Of a stretch of DNA of 64,000 nt, positions 13,958 to 54,691 are shown in pieces. The notes beneath the pieces were generated by a model. It ran no database searches and had not been told where the DNA came from. It worked only from the letters and a program-made list of their open reading frames with translations. Location of the stretch: positions 209,692-273,691 of the forward strand of contig JBAZUP010000001.1 in the NCBI GenBank assembly GCA_041661385.1, read 5' to 3'. The position numbers and the translations under genes were made by a program. The stretch is from Patescibacteria group bacterium. GTDB lineage: Bacteria; Patescibacteriota; Patescibacteriia; Magasanikbacterales; GWA2-37-8. The number at the start of each line of letters is the position of its first letter. Position 1 is the first letter of the stretch.

Positions 13958-16078
13958 TTAAGCTAATACCGGTTTTTGAGCAAATTCCTTTACTTCTGAT
14001 TCATCTTTGAAAGCATGCGGGTATTTTGCAACCAGATAATCACGCAAGGCTTTTTCCCATGGTCTAACGGTGTTTACTTTTTCAGCAATAAGGCGTTTGG
14101 AAATTAGACATTCTCGTTTTGGTCTTGGAGTATAGAAAGTTTCGGAAAAATAATCAGACGAAACCGGTTTCACCTTAATTTCTGATTCATAACCAAGTAA
14201 AGAAACAATTTTTTCGGCAATCTCAAATCTACTGGCGGCACCGGGTGAAACCAGATGATAAATTCCGTTGGCTTTTTTATCAAGTAACACATTTATGGTG
14301 CGAGCGACATCCGGCGCATAAGAAAGCGTTCCGAATTTATCATTTACAACGTTTAATTCCTGGCTGCCGGAAGTAATTTGCGAAACCAATTTGCCGACAA
14401 ATTTTTTATCATATTTTGGACCCCCGCCAATCAACCATCCGAGGCGTAAAATTAAATGCTTTGGCGCATAATATTGCGTCATAAGTTCGCCCATATGCTT
14501 GGTTAAACCGTAGACGTTTAAAGGCAGCGGTTCATCATGTTCAGTGTACCAATCGCTACTGCCATCAAAAATATTTGCCGAACTGGTATACACTAATGTT
14601 GCACCATATTTAGCGGCAAGTTGAGCCATGGTTTTGGTAGCGAGTGTGTTTACCGTATAAGCTAACGGCAAATTTTTCTCACACGCTTCCAAATCCGTCA
14701 TAGCAGCAAGATGAACGATATAATCCGGCTTAAATTCCGAAATAATTTTTTCGGCATCGGCAAAATTAGTTACATCCAATTCTGATTGCCAATTTTCTGT
14801 CGGGTGCTTGGTGGTAGCGCAAACTAAGTATTTTCCTGAAAAAGAGTCATACAAAGTTCTACCAAGCGCCCCATCCGTGCCGGTAATAAGCATCTTTTTC
14901 CTTCCAACTTTTTCATCTTGTTCGGCTTCTAAAATTTGCTTAGCAGATTCCTTAGTTAGTGACTTGATCAATTTAAAATATTCAAAAGCTATCTTGTCCC
15001 AACTATATAATACCATCGCGCGTTGGGCAGATTTTAATCCAAGTTCAATTATTTCTTCACGGTGATCTGAAGCGTATTCAAACTGCCTGGCAAGCGAAGG
15101 AACATCCATTGAAAAGAATAACCCGGCATCTCCAAGAGGTTCACGATTTTCCTTTTTGTCGTTTGCGATCACACAAACCGCCCTACCCATCGCTTCGATA
15201 AGCGCTGGAGAATGTCCGCCTACTTCGGCGGCCCGCACATAACATAATGAATTTTTAACTAATTGTTTATAACGCTGACCAAACAAAAACCCGGTAAAAA
15301 TTACATTTTTTCCGGCATTCATTTTTATTTCTTCCACCAATTCCGGAGAGTAGCGGTTATCACCCACCATTACCAAGGGTAATTTACTACCGGATGCAGC
15401 GTGCGCCCTTACTACCAAAAGCGGATTATTTTCCGGTTCAAACCGGGCAACGTAAATAAAATATTTTTTGTAAAGCAATTTAAATTCATCAAGCACATCA
15501 ATGTCAGGTGTTTGTTCAGTTTCGATTTCGGTGCCATAAGGAATAAAAGCACTCGACATTCCCCGTTCTTTTTTATAAAACTCCTGCACACTGCCGGCAT
15601 CTGTTACAATTTGATGTGAAGCAATACCTGCGAGGTATGAACAAAGTTTTAAATAGGTACGAGCAAACTTGCCCCATTTTTTACGATGCCAATCCAGCCC
15701 ATCCACGCAAAATACAACTTTCTTTCCAAGAATTTTTGCCAGCAATGCAAACGGCGCATTTCCAACATTTACAACAATTACAACTGAAGCGGTATTATAT
15801 ATAAACACATGCAGTACGCTGATCAAAGAATGAAAAAGCGTATCCAAACTTTTACGCGCAATAGTTGGTAAATAAAATAACTTCACGCCTTTATATTCAA
15901 CGGGTTTGTTTTCAAAATAATTGGATCGGCAATATACCGAAACATCAGCGCCGAGCCCTTTTAGATTAACCGCAAGCTCTTCTGCAAGAGTTTCAAAACC
16001 ACCGTAAGAATTAGGAATTCCTCGGTGACCGAGAATAGCAATGCGAATTGGCTGAGTTTTTGTAGTAGTTTTCTCCAT
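13958..16078 (-). CDS. Fusion protein: GT4 glycosyltransferase (DUF1972/RgpA-like putative rhamnosyltransferase) plus dTDP-4-dehydrorhamnose reductase (RmlD)
   Basis: N-terminal roughly 390 aa read IRIAILGHRGIPNSYGGFETLAEEL... with a GT-B C-terminal half. The C-terminal roughly 310 aa read KMLITGTDGALGRTL (Rossmann fold) ... NVYGLTKHMGE (RmlD Y-x-x-x-K) ... RLGWLIGGG. Confidence 0.65.
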   Translation of the reverse strand: MEKTTTKTQPIRIAILGHRGIPNSYGGFETLAEELAVNLKGLGADVSVYCRSNYFENKPVEYKGVKLFYLPTIARKSLDTLFHSLISVLHVFIYNTASVVIVVNVGNAPFALLAKILGKKVVFCVDGLDWHRKKWGKFARTYLKLCSYLAGIASHQIVTDAGSVQEFYKKERGMSSAFIPYGTEIETEQTPDIDVLDEFKLLYKKYFIYVARFEPENNPLLVVRAHAASGSKLPLVMVGDNRYSPELVEEIKMNAGKNVIFTGFLFGQRYKQLVKNSLCYVRAAEVGGHSPALIEAMGRAVCVIANDKKENREPLGDAGLFFSMDVPSLARQFEYASDHREEIIELGLKSAQRAMVLYSWDKIAFEYFKLIKSLTKESAKQILEAEQDEKVGRKKMLITGTDGALGRTLYDSFSGKYLVCATTKHPTENWQSELDVTNFADAEKIISEFKPDYIVHLAAMTDLEACEKNLPLAYTVNTLATKTMAQLAAKYGATLVYTSSANIFDGSSDWYTEHDEPLPLNVYGLTKHMGELMTQYYAPKHLILRLGWLIGGGPKYDKKFVGKLVSQITSGSQELNVVNDKFGTLSYAPDVARTINVLLDKKANGIYHLVSPGAASRFEIAEKIVSLLGYESEIKVKPVSSDYFSETFYTPRPKRECLISKRLIAEKVNTVRPWEKALRDYLVAKYPHAFKDESEVKEFAQKPVLA

Positions 16079-29429: not shown

Positions 29430-30737
29430 TTATTCGTTTATAACTTCAATTTGAGCGCCAGCGGCGCAAAGTGTTTCATAAAGATTTTCGTACCCTCGAT
29501 CAATTGTATAAGTATTACGCAGAATTGACCGGCCTTTCGCCGCGAGCATCGCAATAAGTACGTTTACCGCCGGGCGCAGCGCTGGCGGAGCAACCACTTC
29601 ATTTGGTAAAAAATTAACCGGGCCTTCCACCCATACTCGGTGGGTGTCCACTAAATCTATTTTAGCACCTAATTTTTTTAATTCCAGACTATAAATGGCC
29701 CGATCTTCGTAAACCCAATCATGAATCATAGTGCGCCCCTTTGCGGTCGCAACAATTGGAATAAATAGCGGTAAATTATCGATGTTTAACCCGGGAAACG
29801 GACGACATTCAATTTTGTCTGGCAAGGCTACCAATTTGCTTGGAAAAATTTCAATATCAACCAAGGTAAATGCTCCGCTTTTTGATAAGTGTTGATTTTT
29901 AATTTTTAATTTTTGACCCATTATTTCCAGTTTATACATTTCCAATTCCAAAAACTCCAACGGACAATTTTTTATCGTGAGGTGAGATTTGGTTACAATG
30001 CCGGCGGAAATTAAAGTCATCGCCACAATCGGATCAGGCATAATTGGATAATCTTTGACCGAGTGTAATTTTGAAACACCTTCGATGGTAAGAGTAGTAG
30101 TACCCAGTCCGGATATTTTGGCGCCTGCCTTCACCAAAAAGTGGCACAAATCTTGTACCGTATAGTTGGCTGAGGCCATTTTTATTACCGTTTTACCTTT
30201 GGCGAGTACCGCGCCCATAATAGCATTTGCGGTAGCAGTATCACCAGATTCGTACATGATTATTTCAGCACCTTTTAAAATAGAATTATTTTCAACCTGA
30301 TAAAACCCGGGAAATGTTTCTACCTTAACTCCGAGCTTTCCCAAAGCATAAAGATGAGGGCGAACGGTCCGGTTTCCAAGTTTGCAACCCCCTGAACGAT
30401 AGAGTTTATATTTTTTTTCACGGTGCGCTAGCGCCCCAAGTAGCATGAGACCGGCTCTGGTAACTTCAGCGGCATGACGATCCATTTTTTGAAGAGTAAG
30501 CGGCCGGCTGGAATCGACTTGTAATGTGCCGGGTTTTATTTTAGTGACCCGTACTCCAATGCTGACCAATAGTTCAATTATCCTATTTACCTCTTCAATT
30601 TGCGGAACGTCTGAAAGAACCACCTTCCCGCGTACCATAACAGACGCGCACAAAATAGCGAGAGCCGAATTCTTGGCAGATTGATTTAACAGGGTCCCGG
30701 AAAGCTTTTTTCCGCCCTCTACGATAAGGTATGCCAT
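29430..30737 (-). CDS. murA: UDP-N-acetylglucosamine 1-carboxyvinyltransferase
   Basis: 435 aa. MAYLIVEGGKKLSGTLL...KNSALAILCAS is the EPSP-synthase-like fold. Confidence 0.9.
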   Translation of the reverse strand: MAYLIVEGGKKLSGTLLNQSAKNSALAILCASVMVRGKVVLSDVPQIEEVNRIIELLVSIGVRVTKIKPGTLQVDSSRPLTLQKMDRHAAEVTRAGLMLLGALAHREKKYKLYRSGGCKLGNRTVRPHLYALGKLGVKVETFPGFYQVENNSILKGAEIIMYESGDTATANAIMGAVLAKGKTVIKMASANYTVQDLCHFLVKAGAKISGLGTTTLTIEGVSKLHSVKDYPIMPDPIVAMTLISAGIVTKSHLTIKNCPLEFLELEMYKLEIMGQKLKIKNQHLSKSGAFTLVDIEIFPSKLVALPDKIECRPFPGLNIDNLPLFIPIVATAKGRTMIHDWVYEDRAIYSLELKKLGAKIDLVDTHRVWVEGPVNFLPNEVVAPPALRPAVNVLIAMLAAKGRSILRNTYTIDRGYENLYETLCAAGAQIEVINE

Positions 30738-40629: not shown

Positions 40630-40728
40630 AAATATGCCATAATAATAACATAAAATGACGCTATTCGCAAATGTATTGGAAATGATTAGGGCGGCCGCAA
40701 TTTCGCGGCCGCCCCGGAAAAAGAACGA

Positions 40729-41316
40729 CTATACGACCTTTCTTACATCGATGTCTTTTCGCTCAAGACCGAGCGAGTAAAAGGCGGTAAGAACAGCCTC
40801 AAGCTGAGACGGATTACCGCCAAATTCAGGGCTCCAAACAAGCTTGATATCGGACGGTTCACCGCCGTGCGGATAGATGCGAAAATCACATCGAACTGAG
40901 TTATTAAACCGGTTATACTTGTGAGCCGACCTCACAAATGAAAGATGGCCCACATAACCACGCCGCAGAAAAACGGCGGCGATCTTCCGAATAATTTCAA
41001 AGCTTTTTTCACTTTTGCGCCCAGCCTCTTCAAAAGCAACAAAGCTCGGAAGCTTTTTGTCTACCATGAGCGCAGAAAGATCTGGAAGGTGTCTTTTCCC
41101 GGATCCCTGCTCGGCTTTTCCGACAATCACCGGTGAAATATCATGCAATCTGGAAAAGAGGTATCCAGTTTGATATGCAATATCACGAAACATCTCCTGA
41201 TCTGGCGGGAAATGCAAAACCCCGTCGAACCATTTCCAATCTTTTGGAATAGATTCTACAAGCTTTTTACGGACCTCTGGATTATCCGGAAGCGCAAAAA
41301 AGATTTGGTTTTCCAT
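40729..41316 (-). CDS. Hypothetical protein (195 aa) with elevated GC relative to its neighbours
   Basis: No recognisable motif. The gene body is about 48% GC against about 38% locally. It is flanked downstream by a strong GC hairpin, GGCGGCCGC-AATTTC-GCGGCCGCC (40658-40685). Confidence 0.4.
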   Translation of the reverse strand: MENQIFFALPDNPEVRKKLVESIPKDWKWFDGVLHFPPDQEMFRDIAYQTGYLFSRLHDISPVIVGKAEQGSGKRHLPDLSALMVDKKLPSFVAFEEAGRKSEKSFEIIRKIAAVFLRRGYVGHLSFVRSAHKYNRFNNSVRCDFRIYPHGGEPSDIKLVWSPEFGGNPSQLEAVLTAFYSLGLERKDIDVRKVV

Positions 41317-41383
41317 CTCTTCCTCCTCATCGTGCTTGAAAGGTTAACTGATAGAAACTAACACGAGAAATAAAAATTAGCAA

Positions 41384-41414
41384 GGTAAAAAATAACCGCT
41401 TGGTTTAAGCGGTT
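41384..41414 (-). terminator. Intrinsic terminator after the 864-aa ATP-grasp gene
   Basis: AACCGCTT-loop-AAGCGGTT followed on the minus strand by ATTTTTTACC. Confidence 0.55.
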
Positions 41415-41429
41415 AGATATTAAACTGAA

Positions 41430-44024
41430 TTACTCATGAAGCTCCCAAATGAACCGCGCTACCGGGTTTGGCTTGCCGATAAGCGGATGGTGATGCAAAT
41501 TTATAAACGGCATGCCGTTACACTCTATAATACCCCACTTTTTACCGGCCGGCGAAACTGTCACATCATCAACGATGAAATCAAACCCGAGCAGCGGGTC
41601 GCCGATAGCGGCGGCGGCTTTTTCCAAAGCCGCTTTGATTTCCGGATGCGTTTCCTCGGTAATTTCAAAACTTGAACCGCCATAGGAAATGCCGACTTTT
41701 TCAGTAAGATCAATTTTTTTATCTTTCGGCAAAACTGTTTTAAGATTAAATCCGTTTCTAGCCAAAAATTCATTTGAAGATTGAGAAATTTTAAAATCTT
41801 TTACGCGCGGATCTTTGGCGGCATTTTTTAATTCAATTAATTCACTAATAGTATGGGTGCCGTCGCCAATAATGCGCGGAGGTGAACCGCCCAAAACTCC
41901 CGCAAGTTTTCCACCAATTACTGTGCCTCGGAATACGTCTCCGATCAAATGTTCTTCCATAACCACCCAGTGGCATAATTGCTTGGCTATTTTAAAAGCC
42001 TTACGAAGCTGCTCTTCATTATAAATATGAGTGGTGGTGTGGCGGCCGCGAGAACCAAGCCTCGGTTTAATAATAACCGGCTTTTCCAATTCACGAAACC
42101 TATTTAACAATTTCTTATATTTTGAATATCCGCCACCCGGTGAAACCGGCACCCCGGCCGACATTAATTTTTTCTTGATTATGGCTTTATCGTCTAGCCA
42201 AAATTCAATCTCGGTATCCTTAAATTTATCAGGTCGCGGCAAACCAGAAAAATACATAACCTTATCGCCAATTTTTGCGTCGTAAAAATCAACCTCACGC
42301 CCAAATATTTTTGCTCCTCTCATTTCAATCCCCTTTTTTTCAGCTTCCTCCCATAAAACTTTTGCCCGTTCAATCGTCCAAGTTTCACGATTATTATGGA
42401 ATCCAACCAACTTCAACTTTTCAAATATTCGCCACCAAAGCATAAAAAAATTATCCAGAAGTCGACTAAACGCCCTAAAAATCCCCACTCTTGCCATGGA
42501 CCGATTCAATGGCGACATCATTATAATCATTGATTCACTTATCCACTGCACATTATGCGGAACCGGATTATTACCGCAATATTCGCATTTCTTCGGCGCA
42601 AACAGATTACTGAAATTGGACGGGATAAATAAAAACGGCTTCAGTTTTTTCCGTTTAACATTAGACGTCTTTCCGGTAATTATTTTGTAATATTCAGGCA
42701 GCATAGTATCAACAGCTTTTTTTAGGGAAGTTAAAAGACAAATCTTTTTAAAATCTGCGGCGTTGTTTTCATTTCCGTACAAAAGCACGTCTAAGCCGGT
42801 CGCCGGAACTGAGCGGCTTTGATAATTAATAAACGAAAGAGCCATATCCGCCGCAAAATGGTTGGTTTGAAGCGCCGCTAAAAATGGTGGAATTATAAAA
42901 TTGTTTTCCAATAATACTTTTTTCCAGGCGGCCTTTAATTCTGCCAAATAATTCACCTGGCTGAACCCGCCGCCGCAAGTCACACCATAATAAAACGAAA
43001 TCACAATATAAGTAAGGGCCATGCTCGGCATAATCTGATTATTGTTCAGCGCTTCCGCTACGCCATTTGGGGTAAGTGGAATATTTAAATTGTAATCATT
43101 GCTAATAAGTTTTTCATCTTCCAAAAACAGTCTAACTCTTTTACCGTTTTTTAAACCCCAAAACAAAAAGGTTCCCTTATTCTCCGCTTCAAAAAATGCC
43201 CCGGCAATACCGTTGAAATTTTTCCTAAACGAAGACAGGGTCTTTTTATTAAACATCAGTTCAAAGATAGCCGTTTTTTTATTTAGGTGGTGTTGTAAAA
43301 TTAAATTCTTTACAATTTCTTCCTGATCCAAATAAATTAAATTCGAATTTTCCTGTCCGGGAAATAATTTCCATAAATGATAATTTCCTCTGCTGATTTG
43401 ATCAGAATATTTTTCGCACAACAAATTATCTTCTCTAAAAAATGTTTTATTCAAAATTTTAAGCAATCGGTTAGATTTATAACCAAGATCTTCCGCAATT
43501 ATTTCTTTTATTACATTAGCAACAGCGCTTTTATCATAACCTTTGGTGATATGTATCGGCTGGTGCTTATTTTTTAAACTGAAGAGGTGCAAGCGCTTTT
43601 CGTCGAGATTTGAATCATGAACCAAAAAACCTCTGGGAAACGATGAATTATTGAGCGATACACCTGAACAAGCCAAAGTAAAAATATATTTATTGTTTTT
43701 ATGATTATTTACCAATGCCTGCAACCAAGTAGAATTGAAAAAAAATGCGTGAGTAAGCGGGCCATGATGGTCGGCGGTGGAAACATAATATTGATTCCAT
43801 AATTCCACTCGCGCTTCTTCCGCCGTCTTTTTATCAAATAATTCTAAAATCTTAGCTTCAACAACCCCAAGAAACTCATTTTTCAAATCCTCACTAACAT
43901 TTATTTGCTCATTAACAACTGAAGAAGCATACTCAAAAATCGATTCTTGACCGTGGTCATCGATAATATTTTTTAATACTGGTTTGTCGTCAAAAACTTT
44001 TTTTCTGATTATGCGCCTCGACAT
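41430..44024 (-). CDS. Large protein: roughly 540-aa N-terminal domain of unknown function fused to a C-terminal RimK-like ATP-grasp ligase domain
   Basis: The C-terminal roughly 320 aa read ...VIIKPRLGSRGRHTTTHIYNEEQL...GFDFIVDDVTVSPAGKKWGIIECNGMPF, the RimK/ATP-grasp pattern. The N-terminal part has no recognisable motif. Confidence 0.5.
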   Translation of the reverse strand: MSRRIIRKKVFDDKPVLKNIIDDHGQESIFEYASSVVNEQINVSEDLKNEFLGVVEAKILELFDKKTAEEARVELWNQYYVSTADHHGPLTHAFFFNSTWLQALVNNHKNNKYIFTLACSGVSLNNSSFPRGFLVHDSNLDEKRLHLFSLKNKHQPIHITKGYDKSAVANVIKEIIAEDLGYKSNRLLKILNKTFFREDNLLCEKYSDQISRGNYHLWKLFPGQENSNLIYLDQEEIVKNLILQHHLNKKTAIFELMFNKKTLSSFRKNFNGIAGAFFEAENKGTFLFWGLKNGKRVRLFLEDEKLISNDYNLNIPLTPNGVAEALNNNQIMPSMALTYIVISFYYGVTCGGGFSQVNYLAELKAAWKKVLLENNFIIPPFLAALQTNHFAADMALSFINYQSRSVPATGLDVLLYGNENNAADFKKICLLTSLKKAVDTMLPEYYKIITGKTSNVKRKKLKPFLFIPSNFSNLFAPKKCEYCGNNPVPHNVQWISESMIIMMSPLNRSMARVGIFRAFSRLLDNFFMLWWRIFEKLKLVGFHNNRETWTIERAKVLWEEAEKKGIEMRGAKIFGREVDFYDAKIGDKVMYFSGLPRPDKFKDTEIEFWLDDKAIIKKKLMSAGVPVSPGGGYSKYKKLLNRFRELEKPVIIKPRLGSRGRHTTTHIYNEEQLRKAFKIAKQLCHWVVMEEHLIGDVFRGTVIGGKLAGVLGGSPPRIIGDGTHTISELIELKNAAKDPRVKDFKISQSSNEFLARNGFNLKTVLPKDKKIDLTEKVGISYGGSSFEITEETHPEIKAALEKAAAAIGDPLLGFDFIVDDVTVSPAGKKWGIIECNGMPFINLHHHPLIGKPNPVARFIWELHE

Positions 44025-44030
44025 ATATTG

Positions 44031-44792
44031 CTACTCGGTTATTTTCAACTCCTTTTCACCAAGGAAACGAACTTCACCTAGCAACTCTATTTCTAAACTC
44101 GGTTTAAAACGAATTTCGTACCTGTGACCACTTGGCTGTTTAACAAAAAAAATCTCATTTTTTGACGGGTCTCTAAAAGGTATACAAGCCGCTATACTCC
44201 CCGATCCACAGGCGCTTTCTTTTACAAAAGTTCCAGTTTCTTTAACCCAAACTGTCGGCTCAATTTTTAAACTTGCGTAACTATTTTTTTCGAGAAAAAT
44301 TATTCCAAAAGCCGGAGAACTATTATAGTATGCCCGCACCAATGAATCGGCATCGAGATCTTTTTTTGTAGTCACGAGATAAGAGATACCCTGCAGTTCC
44401 ACCAAAAAACCATCGAACACCACGGTACAACCCACCACTAATGAGCCGGGCATGGATAGCGCGATAAGTTGGTCAGATTTTTGAGCAGTAATCTCTTGGT
44501 CAAATCCGGAAACTGTAAACTTTACTTCATCAATATTCTTTTCGTTTAACCAATGACTGGCCGCGGAACTTGCCGCATTCACGCAAAATTCACCGCCCAT
44601 CATTTGCAAACGTAACGGTCCCGCGCCCGACAAAACAAACCCTACTTGTTCAATTTCTGGATTACTCGCCATTATCTCCCTTGAAACCTCTGAAACTGAA
44701 TCTTTGTGATTAGAAAAAACGATCGCAGTAGTATTGCCACCCGGATAAAAAACCTTATATTTAACGTTATTTTTGTTGTTATCTATTGCCAT
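44031..44792 (-). CDS. Diaminopimelate epimerase-family (DapF-like PLP-independent epimerase/racemase) protein
   Basis: FYPGGNTTAIV (resembles GLGNDF), MMGGEFCVNAASSAAS (first catalytic Cys region) and ESACGSGSIAAC (resembles the ACGTGACAA second Cys motif). 253 aa. Confidence 0.45.
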   Translation of the reverse strand: MAIDNNKNNVKYKVFYPGGNTTAIVFSNHKDSVSEVSREIMASNPEIEQVGFVLSGAGPLRLQMMGGEFCVNAASSAASHWLNEKNIDEVKFTVSGFDQEITAQKSDQLIALSMPGSLVVGCTVVFDGFLVELQGISYLVTTKKDLDADSLVRAYYNSSPAFGIIFLEKNSYASLKIEPTVWVKETGTFVKESACGSGSIAACIPFRDPSKNEIFFVKQPSGHRYEIRFKPSLEIELLGEVRFLGEKELKITE

Positions 44793-44840
44793 AATTCCGC
44801 TTAATTATAGCAAGAACTTAAAATAAAACAACCTTAAACA

Positions 44841-44867
44841 AAAAACAGCCCATTGGGCTGTTTTTTG
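44841..44867. terminator. Bidirectional intrinsic terminator (CAGCCC-ATT-GGGCTG with flanking A/T runs)
   Basis: Downstream of the surface-protein gene (-). Confidence 0.55.
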
Positions 44868-44877
44868 ATATTTCTAT

Positions 44878-45942
44878 TTAATCATCTTCCTGCTCGCTGT
44901 GATTCGTGCGAGTTTGATTTAATGATCGAACAGATCTATGCTGTTCACCTTGTGAATTCTTTGAATCATGAATTTCAATTTCATTTTCATCTTCATGATC
45001 ATCTTCATCGTCATCATGATGTTGATTGTTGGTATTTGGGGTTGAAGTTGGAGTTGAGGTTGGAGGAGTTACTGGCGGAGGTGTGGTCGGGGTTGAAGTA
45101 ACATTATTTACGGTTACTAAAATTAAAGTTGAATTTCCAATATTACTTGCTGGGTCATAGGCCTTTGCTTGTAAGGTATGCGGACCGTTTGTTTCCAAAG
45201 TGGTGTCCCAAGCAAATGAATATGGATTGGTAATATCAAGATATTTTAATATACCATCAACATAAAACTCTACCTTTGCAACACTTGGCACACCAGTCGC
45301 ATCGGCAGCAACCATTATAGTACCAGACACGGTAGAAGGACCCGGGGTGGTTATATTGGAAGTTGGAGGGGTTGAGGTGGTTGAACCGGCATTATTAACA
45401 GTTACGTTTACAACTGAAGAGTTGCTTACGTTTACACCATCATAGGCTTTGGCTTGCAAAGTATGCGCGCCATTTGAAACGGCGGCAGTGTTCCAATCAT
45501 ACGAATATGCCAAAGAGGTGTCCGTTGAAGCTAACGCACCATCAATATAAAATTCAACTTTCGTTACTCCAGTATAAGTAGTGGGAAGTAAATACGGAAT
45601 CATGCGTGTCACATCTGTCCCGTGCATGCCGAAATATAGCGCGTCATTATTTTGTCCGCAGAGGAAAACATTTCCACCAGGATGAGCGCCGGTTGGTTGC
45701 AGCGGCGTCACATCATACTGTTTTCCATAAAGATTTATTACGCACGAAGAGAAAAGGTCGGTAGCGGTTGCAGCGATTGTAACTGTTCCAAAAACAGAAG
45801 CGCCGTTTGCTGGCGAGACGATTGAGACAACCGGTGGCGAACTATCAGTTGGAGCGGCATAAGCCATAATCGGCAGGAGCGGTGCAATAACCATTGCACT
45901 AACCACTCCATATATAAGTGTTTTTAATGAATTTTTATTCAT
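44878..45942 (-). CDS. Cell-surface protein with two bacterial Ig-like repeats, a P/T-rich linker and an acidic C-terminal tail
   Basis: Signal/TM at the N-terminus. Two repeats (VEFYIDGALASTDTSLAYSYDWNTAAVSNGAHTLQAKAYD and VEFYVDGILKYLDITNPYSFAWDTTLETNGPHTLQAKAYD), a TPTTPPPVTPPTSTPTSTP linker and a DDDEDDHEDENE tail. Confidence 0.55.
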   Translation of the reverse strand: MNKNSLKTLIYGVVSAMVIAPLLPIMAYAAPTDSSPPVVSIVSPANGASVFGTVTIAATATDLFSSCVINLYGKQYDVTPLQPTGAHPGGNVFLCGQNNDALYFGMHGTDVTRMIPYLLPTTYTGVTKVEFYIDGALASTDTSLAYSYDWNTAAVSNGAHTLQAKAYDGVNVSNSSVVNVTVNNAGSTTSTPPTSNITTPGPSTVSGTIMVAADATGVPSVAKVEFYVDGILKYLDITNPYSFAWDTTLETNGPHTLQAKAYDPASNIGNSTLILVTVNNVTSTPTTPPPVTPPTSTPTSTPNTNNQHHDDDEDDHEDENEIEIHDSKNSQGEQHRSVRSLNQTRTNHSEQEDD

Positions 45943-46227
45943 ATGACTTGATGAAATCATATCGCGAAACATCAGTTGAGACGCGATGTTAATTAATTTA
46001 TTGTTTTTTTCAATAACAAACCGGAAATTAGCTACTTACATATATTTAATTTTTACAAATTAAAAAAAGACCAATTGTTATTCGCCCTCATAATGATAGA
46101 CAGTTTTGCGGCAATTTTTGGACTAATCGCCTATCTAAATATTCATTACACGCTACAACTACAATAGGTTACAAACTAAAAAACCCCTCTTGATATATGA
46201 CAAAAGGGGCTAAAAAAAGATTTATTA

Positions 46228-53320: not shown

Positions 53321-54691
53321 TTATGATTTCATATGCTTTACAATGTCCGACGGTTCATCAATTATCTTAATTAACAATTCATCTGGAGCGGAAATTGTTT
53401 TAAATTCTACATTTAAGTTGTGAATTATATCAAGCAATGGTTTCCAATATTCTTTTCCATATAACAAAATCGGCATAACTTCCATTTTCTTTGTTTCCTG
53501 CAGAGTTAAAAGCTCAAAAAGTTGATGCAAAGTGCCGAATCCGCCCGGAAAAAAAACAAAAAAATCAGACGGCGCGGTAATTATTAGTTTGCGGACAAAA
53601 GGAAAGAAAAAACCTTTTGATTTTGTAATATAATTATTAACCCGTTCCTTGCCATTCAATTGCATCGTAATACCGATACTCTCACCACCGAGTTCAAAAG
53701 CGCCCTTACTTGCAGCTTCCATAATACCAGGACCGCCGCCGGTAATAACCGTATATTTATTTTCTGCCAAAACCTTACCAACATTATAAGCTGCCTCGTA
53801 GTATGGTGAACCAGGCAAACAACTTTTGGTGCCGAGGAGGGTGACATTTTTATCAATTCTAGTCAAAAATTCAAAACCTTCAACCAACTCTGCCATAATT
53901 CGAAAAACTCGCCAATCAGTCGTACCTTCTTGGCAGAGCGGATTATGCGAATCGTTATCACAGACATTTGGTCGGTCAGTAATATCCTTTATGAGGTCAT
54001 AAGCTTCTTCCGCGGTTTCGACGATGTGCCAATGATTCATTTCACTGCTAGAAATAGAATGGACTTCTTCAACCGCGCGTTCACGCAAAAAATTTATAAT
54101 CGGCTCCCAATATTCTCTTCCGACCAAAACAATTGGCGCTTTATCCATGAAACCCATTTCCATATAATCCACCACTTCAAAAAATTCATCTAAGGTTCCA
54201 TAACCCCCAGGGAAAAAAACAAAAGCATTACCAGGAGAAGTAAGCATTACTTTTCTGGTAAAAAAATAATAAAAAGCGACCGCTTTTTTCACATAAGGAT
54301 TAATACGCTGTTCCATCGGTAATTGAATGTTGAGGCCGACCGATTCACCGCCAACTTCAAACGCGCCTTTGTTGGCCGCTTCCATAATACCGGGACCGCC
54401 GCCGGTAATGGTGGTAAAACCATTTTTTCCAAGCAGTCTGCCCAAATCCTCGGCTATTTTGTAATACTTATTGTTTGAAGGGATGCGCGCAGAACCAAGG
54501 ACGATAACTTCTTTAACAAGTTCACTTAAAAATTGATAACCTTCAACCATTTCAGTAACAATTCGAAAAATTCGCCAACTATCACGGTAATTTACCGCCG
54601 CGCCAGTAGTCTCCATATGATGGTGCACCTTGAGCGGACTTTCGTTATTGTGCGTGGCGTCATTATTATTTTTCTGATTTTTATCCGCCAT
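53321..54691 (-). CDS. Tandem-duplicated LOG/TIGR00730-family (cytokinin riboside 5'-monophosphate phosphoribohydrolase-like) protein
   Basis: Two complete LOG-like modules: TITGGGPGIMEAANKGAFEVGGESVGLNIQL...FPGGYGTLDEFFE and VITGGGPGIMEAASKGAFELGGESIGITMQL...FPGGFGTLHQLFE. Confidence 0.65.
   Translation of the reverse strand: MADKNQKNNNDATHNNESPLKVHHHMETTGAAVNYRDSWRIFRIVTEMVEGYQFLSELVKEVIVLGSARIPSNNKYYKIAEDLGRLLGKNGFTTITGGGPGIMEAANKGAFEVGGESVGLNIQLPMEQRINPYVKKAVAFYYFFTRKVMLTSPGNAFVFFPGGYGTLDEFFEVVDYMEMGFMDKAPIVLVGREYWEPIINFLRERAVEEVHSISSSEMNHWHIVETAEEAYDLIKDITDRPNVCDNDSHNPLCQEGTTDWRVFRIMAELVEGFEFLTRIDKNVTLLGTKSCLPGSPYYEAAYNVGKVLAENKYTVITGGGPGIMEAASKGAFELGGESIGITMQLNGKERVNNYITKSKGFFFPFVRKLIITAPSDFFVFFPGGFGTLHQLFELLTLQETKKMEVMPILLYGKEYWKPLLDIIHNLNVEFKTISAPDELLIKIIDEPSDIVKHMKS

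Follow-up and report, generated by a model that had tools for sequence, protein, structure and literature searches.

Introduction

In Enterococcus faecium, an aspartate racemase (Racfm) is paired in operon logic with an ATP-grasp D-Asp ligase (Aslfm). GshF forms a tripeptide in two ATP-dependent steps, and acyl phosphates are formed by ATP-grasp enzymes that extend gamma-Glu-Cys, the cyanophycin backbone or N-acetyl-Gln. For ligases resembling class I aminoacyl-tRNA synthetases (aaRS), operation alongside ATP-grasp ligases has precedent (PMC2922099). Here we describe a locus that appears to join such elements. It lies in a stretch of 64,000 nucleotides (nt) from a Patescibacteria group bacterium (GCA_041661385.1, contig JBAZUP010000001.1, positions 209,692 to 273,691), in the following called the window, and consists of a gene for a two-cysteine racemase of 253 amino acids (aa) and a gene for an 864-aa protein with two unrelated, putatively ATP-dependent ligase domains. 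On balance, we lean towards reading this racemase and two-ligase operon as a ribosome-independent, ATP-dependent amide- or peptide-forming system that uses a D-amino acid and is specific to the candidate phyla radiation (CPR).

Much of bacterial diversity belongs to the CPR, or Patescibacteria, ultrasmall bacteria in which hardly any biosynthetic capacity has been recognised. A dedicated and conserved system of two ligases and a racemase would imply a D-amino-acid compound that has not been sought in these bacteria.

Results

Linkage of racemase, N-domain and ATP-grasp genes

The gene neighbourhoods of the N-terminal domain of the 864-aa protein (N-domain) were examined in a species-level scan with one genome per species. 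It yielded 119 loci, and the 80 most similar to the query were kept for counts. These counts rest on hidden Markov model searches of the open reading frames (ORFs) within 10 kb on either side of the N-domain gene. An ATP-grasp gene adjoins the N-domain gene in 20 of the 80 loci. The order N-domain, ATP-grasp was seen in 14 of these 20 (L012-L018, L020, L021, L029, L041, L042, L070, L075); in most of these, the two are separate ORFs, overlapping or directly adjoining, with the boundary at a consistent place. The racemase gene stands between the two in L019 and L051 (2/20), the ATP-grasp gene comes first in L059, L061 and L078 (3/20), and the genes are convergent in L068 (1/20). The racemase gene was present within 10 kb in 16 of the 80 loci and directly downstream of the N-domain gene in ten; there, the matched N-domain and racemase domains are 8-158 nt apart. 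Unbiased clustering of the neighbouring ORFs gave ATP-grasp (20 loci) and racemase (18 loci) as the top two families, and the next families occurred in 8 loci.

Furthermore, the parts are joined in single polypeptides. Fusions of N-domain and ATP-grasp were found 13 times, and one protein (P0028) is a fusion of N-domain and racemase, its racemase part being 37% identical to that of the window (E 4e-49). Synteny with the window is seen in locus L095, which shares SulP on the upstream side and yidC-band7-hrcA-grpE-dnaK on the downstream side; there, three separate genes of one operon encode the racemase, an N-domain with 45% identity and an ATP-grasp with 70% identity. In L019 and L051, too, all three genes belong to one operon. 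In a neighbour-joining tree, the N-domain clade of the window is joined to ATP-grasp in 22 of 23 members. The tree contains a second ATP-grasp-linked clade, and the racemase links are scattered over several N-domain clades. The pairing of racemase and ligase had been proposed as a module, and it is borne out as a genuine functional unit that did not arise by chance proximity: the genes are recurrent neighbours, both types of fusion exist, and the syntenic locus L095 holds all three genes. The split gene pair is widespread, and the N-domain/ATP-grasp fusion of the window derives from it.

At an earlier stage the racemase link had been taken as not conserved, as the first five homologue contexts were without racemase; the 80-locus sample and targeted look-ups overturned this. 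A PBP2 transpeptidase, an M16 peptidase and NDK were considered as partners and rejected, being restricted to the synteny block of one clade, with PBP2 convergent.

Other neighbours were recorded as well. In at least five species (Table 1), an N-domain gene is directly followed on its own strand by a gene for a class IV aminotransferase, which might supply a D-amino acid in a second way. This enzyme may be either a branched-chain aminotransferase (BCAT) or a D-amino-acid transaminase, since the models for the two tie, all below their cut-offs. In L092 (126-5511), a plant-type glutamate-cysteine-ligase-like gene, a gene for an ATP-grasp enzyme of L-amino-acid-ligase type and the N-domain/racemase fusion P0028 stand in a row; three ligases and a racemase in one cluster hint at a thiol peptide. 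A Lum_binding gene (riboflavin-synthase-alpha-like) follows the ATP-grasp gene in L012, L015, L018, L019, L020 and L075, about 1.2-1.9 kb downstream of the N-domain in one clade, and probably reflects synteny rather than function.

The racemase

The 253-aa protein had been annotated as a DapF-family epimerase. The two-cysteine motifs (MMGGEFCVNAAS and ESACGSGSIAAC) and the pyridoxal-phosphate-independent racemase fold they indicate were found again; the assignment to DapF was not retained, as the NCBIfam models of HisR and CntK match instead. Neither the DapF equivalog model TIGR00652 (at E<=0.1) nor the Pfam DAP_epimerase model gave a match for this protein. Its best PDB match is HisR (9cr6, E 9e-12), and the precomputed Pfam annotation of family members lists PF26317 (CntK_N). 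The catalytic residues Cys70 and Cys195 align with Cys67 and Cys209 of HisR and are 99-100% conserved among 113 homologues. Glu48, Glu68 and Glu192 correspond to Glu49, Glu65 and Glu206 of HisR, with 100% conservation in the same set. This Glu triad of HisR and CntK is proposed to bind the imidazole ring (PMC11602996). By its sequence features, the protein is best assigned as a cofactor-independent two-cysteine racemase of the CntK/HisR type and not as DapF.

Two unrelated contigs connect the racemase with histidyl-tRNA synthetase (HisRS). One ORF (P0191/L094:397-1776) comprises a HisRS anticodon-binding domain and the racemase, and the gene order on a Saccharibacteria contig (L093:5169-8460) is racemase-GNAT fusion, M15 peptidase, hisS. 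Fusions of GNAT and racemase also occur. Because HisR and CntK are the best matches, the Glu triad is kept and links to HisRS occur, histidine is the most likely substrate of the racemase.

The ATP-grasp domain

The C-terminal part of the 864-aa protein clearly matches the subfamily formed by the CphA G domain, the C-terminal domain of GshF and N-acetylglutaminylglutamine synthetase (Ngg), and is predicted to be an intact ligase domain. The NCBIfam cyanophycin synthetase model was matched with its G-domain positions 214-467 of 871 (E 4.5e-51; 174 bits against a cut-off of 877), the GshAB model with positions 436-747 of its C-terminal ATP-grasp part (E 1e-37) and the Ngg model with E 3e-28. PDB chains of CphA1, CphA2 and GshAB match at E 1e-26 to 1e-20, the motifs corresponding one by one; 7lg5 matches at E 2.4e-26, and GshAB reaches E 5e-25. 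The AlphaFold2 (AF2) model of the full-length protein has a mean predicted local distance difference test (pLDDT) score of 91.8, with values below 50 only at residues 470-478, and residues 540-864 are mostly above 85. Foldseek returned the ATP-grasp fold for this model (CphA1, CphA2, GshAB, Ddl, LysX and PsnB at E 1e-22 to 1e-8), with a root-mean-square deviation (rmsd) of 3.0 A over 325 columns and 26% identity for CphA1 (7txv).

The initial annotation had recognised an ATP-grasp core (IIKPRLGSRGRHTTT, GFDFIVDD, IIECNGMPF) and compared it to RimK. The motifs are present and the core with its catalytic residues is intact. The RimK model TIGR00768 is only marginal (E 0.022, 14.1 bits against a cut-off of 143.4), which places the domain outside the RimK family. 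K653, the G657-S-R-G-R-H loop, E690/E691 and the Mg ligands D815, E834 and N836 are invariant in the 13 full-length fusions and align with the CphA1 motifs, so that the alignment check for catalytic residues found all of them in place. As these residues are invariant in 13 homologues, the domain looks catalytically competent. Neither a CphA N domain nor the Mur-ligase-like M domain was detected in the 864-aa protein (NCBIfam; Pfam scan without Mur-ligase match). Hence, the protein is not a cyanophycin synthetase, and an arrangement "inverted" relative to that enzyme, as formerly described, does not apply.

The N-domain

Homology search with the 864-aa protein gave 13 full-length homologues (37-43% identity) and over 100 shorter proteins (470-550 aa), whose match is limited to residues 6-450. 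Because of these latter proteins, the N-terminus is regarded as a mostly stand-alone family that is widespread in Patescibacteria. It was found in Magasanik-, Peregrini-/Peri-, Gracili-, Kerfeld- and Paceibacteria, and going by all source names and record titles that seem trustworthy, it is confined to the CPR. Several N-domain loci (L012, L015, L020, L037, L047, L052 and others) are titled "uncultured Gammaproteobacteria bacterium" and stem from metagenome-assembled genomes of binchicken/SRP co-assemblies. These titles look like placeholders or errors, since the gene content and the closest relatives of the records are those of Patescibacteria.

The N-domain alone was modelled with high confidence (AF2, pLDDT 95.9, predicted TM score 0.94). 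T83, H86, N126, P130, R131, Q209, G284, W289, G352, G353, Q356, Y359, L360 and D412 are invariant columns of the family. Against the PDB, Foldseek gave a sole significant match, BshC (4wbd; E 1.2e-7, probability 1.0), which superposes over 383 columns with TM scores of 0.45/0.40, an rmsd of 7.1 A and 14% identity. The weaker matches behind BshC are nearly all class I aaRS (LysRS, GluRS, TyrRS, TrpRS, GlnRS, CysRS, MetRS). BshC itself is reportedly described as class-I-aaRS-like in its structure paper by VanDuinen et al. from 2015, and the Foldseek ranking agrees with this. The modelled fold therefore resembles a Rossmann-type, BshC-like and class-I-aaRS-like domain. Formerly, the first 540 aa were described as a part of unknown nature. 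This holds with regard to Pfam, where no match was obtained; the fold is now found, and it belongs to a separate domain of about 465 aa. A known domain in this region had been named as something that would explain the protein, and the BshC-like fold found by the structure modelling explains it in part.

The sequence of the N-domain contains no literal HIGH or KMSKS. In the model, the invariant T83-x-D-H86-x-G-P is found where the first strand (80-84) gives way to the first helix (93-108) and would, by positional analogy, occupy the place of HIGH in class I aaRS. G352-G-F-S-Q356 comes after the strand 349-352.

Two other assignments were abandoned. A link between N-domain and BshC at sequence level was dropped after Pfam, NCBIfam, the family scan and the PDB profile search had all been negative. 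The idea of a GshA-like glutamate-cysteine ligase (GCL) came from GshAB as top Foldseek hit of the full model, aligned over 703 columns, but with an rmsd of 29 A; the GCL fold was ruled out, as Foldseek with the N-domain alone returned neither GCL nor GshAB.

Tandem duplications of the N-domain were observed in L039, L052, L053, L067, L071, L074, L081 and L085. Two N-domains are present within one ORF in L039 (9914-13039), and L071 (2776-7485) has three consecutive N-domain genes. The second copies form a clade of their own in the tree.

The junction segment

The short stretch of low confidence coincides with the gene boundary of the split versions. Residues 479-490 (window 42555-42590) carry the conserved motif K-C-x-Y-C-G-N-N-P-x-x-H, which is kept in the 13 fusions, and in the model a rather hydrophobic two-helix hairpin follows (helices 490-512 and 514-536). 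All split ATP-grasp proteins open with M-(S)-K-K-C-x-x-C-G-N-N-P-x-x-H and then the hydrophobic helical hairpin; these about 75 aa go with the ATP-grasp gene wherever the genes are split. From its sequence, the CxxC...H segment is a possible metal site or docking element. In general, the 864-aa protein thus consists of a BshC-like domain, a CxxC/helical-hairpin module and an ATP-grasp domain.

Locus layout and window context

The three ORFs of the initial annotation were all recovered, and their positions are compiled in Table 1 with the other features. Between the stop of the racemase gene and the start of the 864-aa gene lie 6 nt (44025-44030), not 3 bp as noted before. The hairpin upstream of the racemase gene looks like the 5' boundary of a two-gene unit, and the hairpin behind the 864-aa gene, terminator-like with its T-run and in line with the terminator proposed earlier, appears to end the racemase-ligase operon. 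As these hairpins flank the pair, both genes look like one transcription unit. A search for a riboswitch or leader 5' of the operon gave, in Rfam at E<=1, only sub-threshold matches driven by the terminator.

Table 1 Positions of genes, domains and hairpins at the racemase-ligase locus, and of aminotransferase genes in related loci (window coordinates unless a locus is named)
Feature	Position	Strand	Basis or remark
Racemase gene, 253 aa	44031-44792	minus	ORF list; CntK/HisR-type
864-aa fusion gene	41430-44024 (stop codon included)	minus	ORF list
N-domain, residues 1-465 of the 864-aa protein	42630-44024	minus	Homology and model
CxxC/helical-hairpin segment, residues 479-536	42417-42590	minus	Conservation and model
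ATP-grasp ligase domain, residues 540-864	41433-42407	minus	NCBIfam, PDB, Foldseek
195-aa gene	40729-41316	minus	ORF list; outside the module
Terminator-like hairpin TAACCGCTTAAACCAAGCGGTTA followed by TTTTTT	41393-41415	minus	3' of the 864-aa gene
Bidirectional terminator-like hairpin CAAAAAACAGCCCATTGGGCTGTTTTTTG	44839-44867		13-bp stem; between the upstream Big_7 gene and the racemase gene
GC-rich perfect hairpin GGGCGGCCGC/GCGGCCGCCC	40689-40714		10-nt arms, 6-nt loop; 3' of the 195-aa gene
Class IV aminotransferase genes	L067:12872-13768; L091:5408-6268; L074:15821-16681; L085:5503-6351; L039:12952-13845

The window as a whole is typical CPR housekeeping DNA, and a partial protein of identical sequence is deposited under Candidatus Magasanikbacteria. 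Past the 195-aa gene, the downstream order is yidC, a Band_7 gene, hrcA, grpE and dnaK. Upstream of the racemase gene (44878-45972), a secreted-looking protein with three Big_7 Ig-like repeats is encoded; its tail is rich in His, Asp and Glu (...NNQHHDDDEDDHEDENEIEIHD...), which could bind metal. Two unusual proteins are encoded elsewhere in the window: a GT4 glycosyltransferase fused to an RmlD-type reductase (706 aa, 13958-16078) and a 456-aa protein with two domains of the LOG/Lysine_decarbox type (SLOG; 53321-54691).

The 195-aa gene

The 195-aa gene downstream of the ligase gene had been regarded as an orphan, perhaps acquired, and was considered here as a possible part of the module. A word-indexed search returned the protein itself only; by exhaustive phmmer search, 177 representative clusters were obtained at E<=1e-3 and 83 at E<=1e-10 (clusters of 50% identity), so that it is no orphan. 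The family is uncharacterised, has about 200 aa, an invariant Trp27 and a conserved G-Y-x-G motif, and gave no match in Pfam or the PDB. The gene has a good Shine-Dalgarno sequence. Its GC content of 45.7% against a window mean of 38.4% (top 1.9% of windows of the same size) is indeed higher, by about 7 points instead of the about 10% given before. The strong hairpin beside it is a perfect inverted repeat, as annotated; no T-run is found behind it. The family is absent in all 92 loci checked, 91 of them with an N-domain gene, and in the syntenic loci L005/L006 and L095 no such gene lies between the ligase gene and yidC. As it was never found near N-domain genes, it was dropped from the module; what separates the ligase gene from yidC here is an unrelated insertion.

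Discussion

Proposed function

In the system that we favour, the racemase would interconvert the L and D forms of histidine or of a very similar amino acid whose side chain is basic; the D-amino acid used is probably D-His. The ATP-grasp domain would spend ATP (giving ADP + Pi) to turn a carboxylate into an acyl phosphate, which it would couple to an amine. As BshC, MshC and the fold of class I aaRS suggest by analogy, the BshC-like domain may carry out a second amide-bond step, probably via an aminoacyl-adenylate or another activated aminoacyl donor. Both ligase sites together could build a small D-amino-acid (pseudo)peptide or attach the D-amino acid to a larger acceptor. Since this trio is met again in many related genomes, the module probably makes a peptide-like D-amino-acid compound. 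As product class, a soluble compound of low molecular weight, for example a thiol, metal-binding or osmolyte-type peptide, is our best guess; the gene neighbours in L092 and the GNAT-racemase fusions are pointers to a soluble peptide.

Several points weigh against this reading. For the racemase, the matches to HisR (E 1.1e-18, 67.8 bits) and CntK (E 2.3e-16, 60.1 bits) lie below the equivalog cut-offs of 400 and 300 bits, and its link to HisRS might just as well reflect a salvage reaction from D-His to L-His. About 60% of the 80 loci have neither partner within 10 kb; hence, either the N-domain function is not strictly partner-dependent or the partners are encoded elsewhere. The likeness of N-domain and BshC is modest and at structure level only (TM 0.40-0.45, 14% identity), and the structure comparison was made with one method, Foldseek. 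No match to a BshC model was obtained for the 864-aa protein (Pfam, NCBIfam), no Pfam match, BshC included, for 55 members of the N-domain family scanned at E<=10, and nothing with the family profile against the PDB sequences, among them 4wbd. The BshC reaction has never been reconstituted, according to a review of 2018 (PMC5790435), and the analogy is therefore of limited mechanistic weight.

Alternative explanations

The best surviving alternative, which we hold to be unlikely, concerns the cell envelope: a D-amino acid or a short D-amino-acid branch would be added to a peptidoglycan precursor or another wall polymer, as in the case of Racfm/Aslfm or Alr/Ddl. The BshC-like paralogues would then act like successive Fem- or Mur-type adding enzymes. 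Candidates for D-amino-acid supply do recur beside the N-domain, namely the racemase and, in L039, L067, L074, L085 and L091, the class IV aminotransferase, but by score the latter is equally a BCAT. Tandem N-domain paralogues occur in eight loci, and the N-domain is conserved and housekeeping-looking in bacteria of otherwise minimal biosynthesis. ATP-grasp ligases make D-amino-acid cross-links (PMC2922099). The racemase-GNAT fusion of L093 adjoins a gene of the M15 D,D-peptidase family; however, mur, fem and ddl genes are not recurrent in the neighbourhoods, and the adjacency of PBP2 is convergent and part of one clade's synteny block. The subfamily of CphA-G, GshF and Ngg is known to act on soluble peptides or polymers and is not known for lipid- or UDP-linked muropeptides. 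D-His is not known as a constituent of peptidoglycan, which also counts against an envelope product. As a version of the two-ligase system, the soluble product is slightly ahead of the envelope product.

A looser association of the genes is improbable. The racemase would then salvage D-His to L-His for HisRS in an auxotroph, the N-domain would be no ligase, for example an RNA-/tRNA-binding or regulatory protein with an aaRS-like fold, and the fusions would reflect co-regulation. The linkage of the racemase to hisS in two unrelated contigs fits this, as do the many N-domain genes, in fact most of them, that are solitary among housekeeping genes (IleRS, ribosomal proteins, topoisomerase) and the lack of a demonstrable HIGH/KMSKS signature in the N-domain. 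However, two combinations of fusion and the overlapping start and stop codons of the split pairs in many species are the classic mark of coupling that is both physical and functional, and nearly the whole N-domain clade of the window (22/23) is joined to ATP-grasp. Moreover, an ATP-grasp ligase needs a carboxylate and an amine as substrates, so that a ligase pathway exists in any case.

Poorer still are the prospects of the 864-aa protein as a CphA-like poly-amino-acid synthetase, in which the ATP-grasp domain would extend a backbone iteratively and the BshC-like domain, replacing the M domain, would add the side-chain residue. Among characterised proteins, the G domains of CphA1 and CphA2 come nearest to the ATP-grasp domain (E 4.5e-51, rmsd 3.0 A), the fusion of two ligases mirrors the logic of CphA1, and one homologue (P0010) is labelled "cyanophycin synthetase" by its source. 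Yet the N and M domains of CphA are missing, the score is 174 bits against 877, and GshAB and Ngg match nearly as well. Furthermore, the N-domain mostly occurs without ATP-grasp, a cyanophycinase-type gene is not recurrent in the neighbourhoods, and the racemase link has no counterpart in cyanophycin synthesis.

A housekeeping dapF for meso-diaminopimelate peptidoglycan as chance neighbour, the fallback of the initial annotation, has become hardly credible: the protein has a DapF fold with two catalytic cysteines, some homologues are named "diaminopimelate epimerase" by their sources and murA is in the window (29430-30737), but TIGR00652 is unmatched where the HisR and CntK models match, the Glu triad of His racemases is conserved, family members carry the CntK_N Pfam domain, and the linkage to the N-domain is recurrent and includes a fusion.

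Significance

Already known are the logic of racemase plus ATP-grasp ligase and each of the folds singly. A BshC-fold family of this kind, its fusion to an ATP-grasp domain of the CphA/GshF type and its recurrent coupling to a CntK-type racemase are apparently undescribed; a literature search for a system of BshC-like domain, ATP-grasp and racemase in CPR found no description. The present work gives the first assignment of a fold, BshC-like and class-I-aaRS-like, to a family of more than 100 clusters without Pfam model, and the natural fusions define the partners of this N-domain family. The fusion protein offers a single, tractable polypeptide for finding the reaction, and it may inform the study of BshC, which had not been reconstituted by the time of the 2018 review (PMC5790435). 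A much bolder idea, to which we give little credence, is that the BshC-like family acts as a ligase throughout the CPR and, with the GshF-type ATP-grasp domain and the His racemase, makes a hitherto unknown small D-histidine compound, perhaps the redox thiol or metal buffer that Patescibacteria are missing. If this were true, an obligatory coupling of BshC fold and ATP-grasp would show the source of the activated aminoacyl donor of BshC-type enzymes and would explain why no reconstitution of BshC in vitro has been achieved.

Comparison with known systems

The combination of racemase and ATP-grasp ligase was formerly called an undescribed pathway, which is not tenable, as its logic is well described for Alr/Ddl and Racfm/Aslfm (PMC2922099). 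With Alr/Ddl, the locus shares a racemase that supplies a D-amino acid and an ATP-grasp enzyme that ligates it (PMC2922099). In contrast to both pairs, the racemase is here of the CntK type and independent of pyridoxal phosphate, the ATP-grasp domain belongs to another subfamily, a BshC-like domain is added and there is no mur link.

HisR of Fusobacterium nucleatum and CntK of the staphylopine pathway of Staphylococcus aureus have the DapF-like fold, the two Cys and the three Glu in common with the 253-aa protein. Identity is low and the scores are below cut-off, and the partners are here two ligase domains, without cntL and cntM.

The use of an aaRS-type Rossmann domain in non-ribosomal amide formation is shared with MshC and the systems of MetRS paralogues (Aravind et al. 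2010; PMC2922099), some of which stand in operons with ATP-grasp ligases (PMC2922099). Those enzymes are recognisable by sequence as aaRS paralogues, whereas the N-domain family is not and has no Pfam model. BshC (YllA; 4WBD), the putative cysteine-adding enzyme of bacillithiol synthesis, resembles the N-domain in its length of about 500 aa and in being without canonical aaRS function, and class I aaRS are the next-nearest structures of both. However, no sequence similarity to BshC is detectable (Pfam, NCBIfam, 4wbd profile), and a coupling to ATP-grasp and racemase is not known for BshC. Within 10 kb on either side of the N-domain genes, neither bshA or bshB nor a recurrent glycosyltransferase or deacetylase partner was seen.

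With the G domains of CphA1 and CphA2, the ATP-grasp domain shares 24-26% identity (rmsd 3.0-4 A, about 325 columns) and all ATP- and Mg-binding motifs. CphA1 differs in its three-domain architecture N + G + M, which is not present here. The N-terminus of GshF/GshAB (3LN6, 3LN7) has a glutamate-cysteine ligase fold, unlike the N-domain, and the NCBIfam match to GshAB covers the ATP-grasp part only. In its architecture, however, GshF resembles the 864-aa protein: an N-terminal amide ligase of about 450 aa is followed by a C-terminal ATP-grasp domain of the same subfamily.

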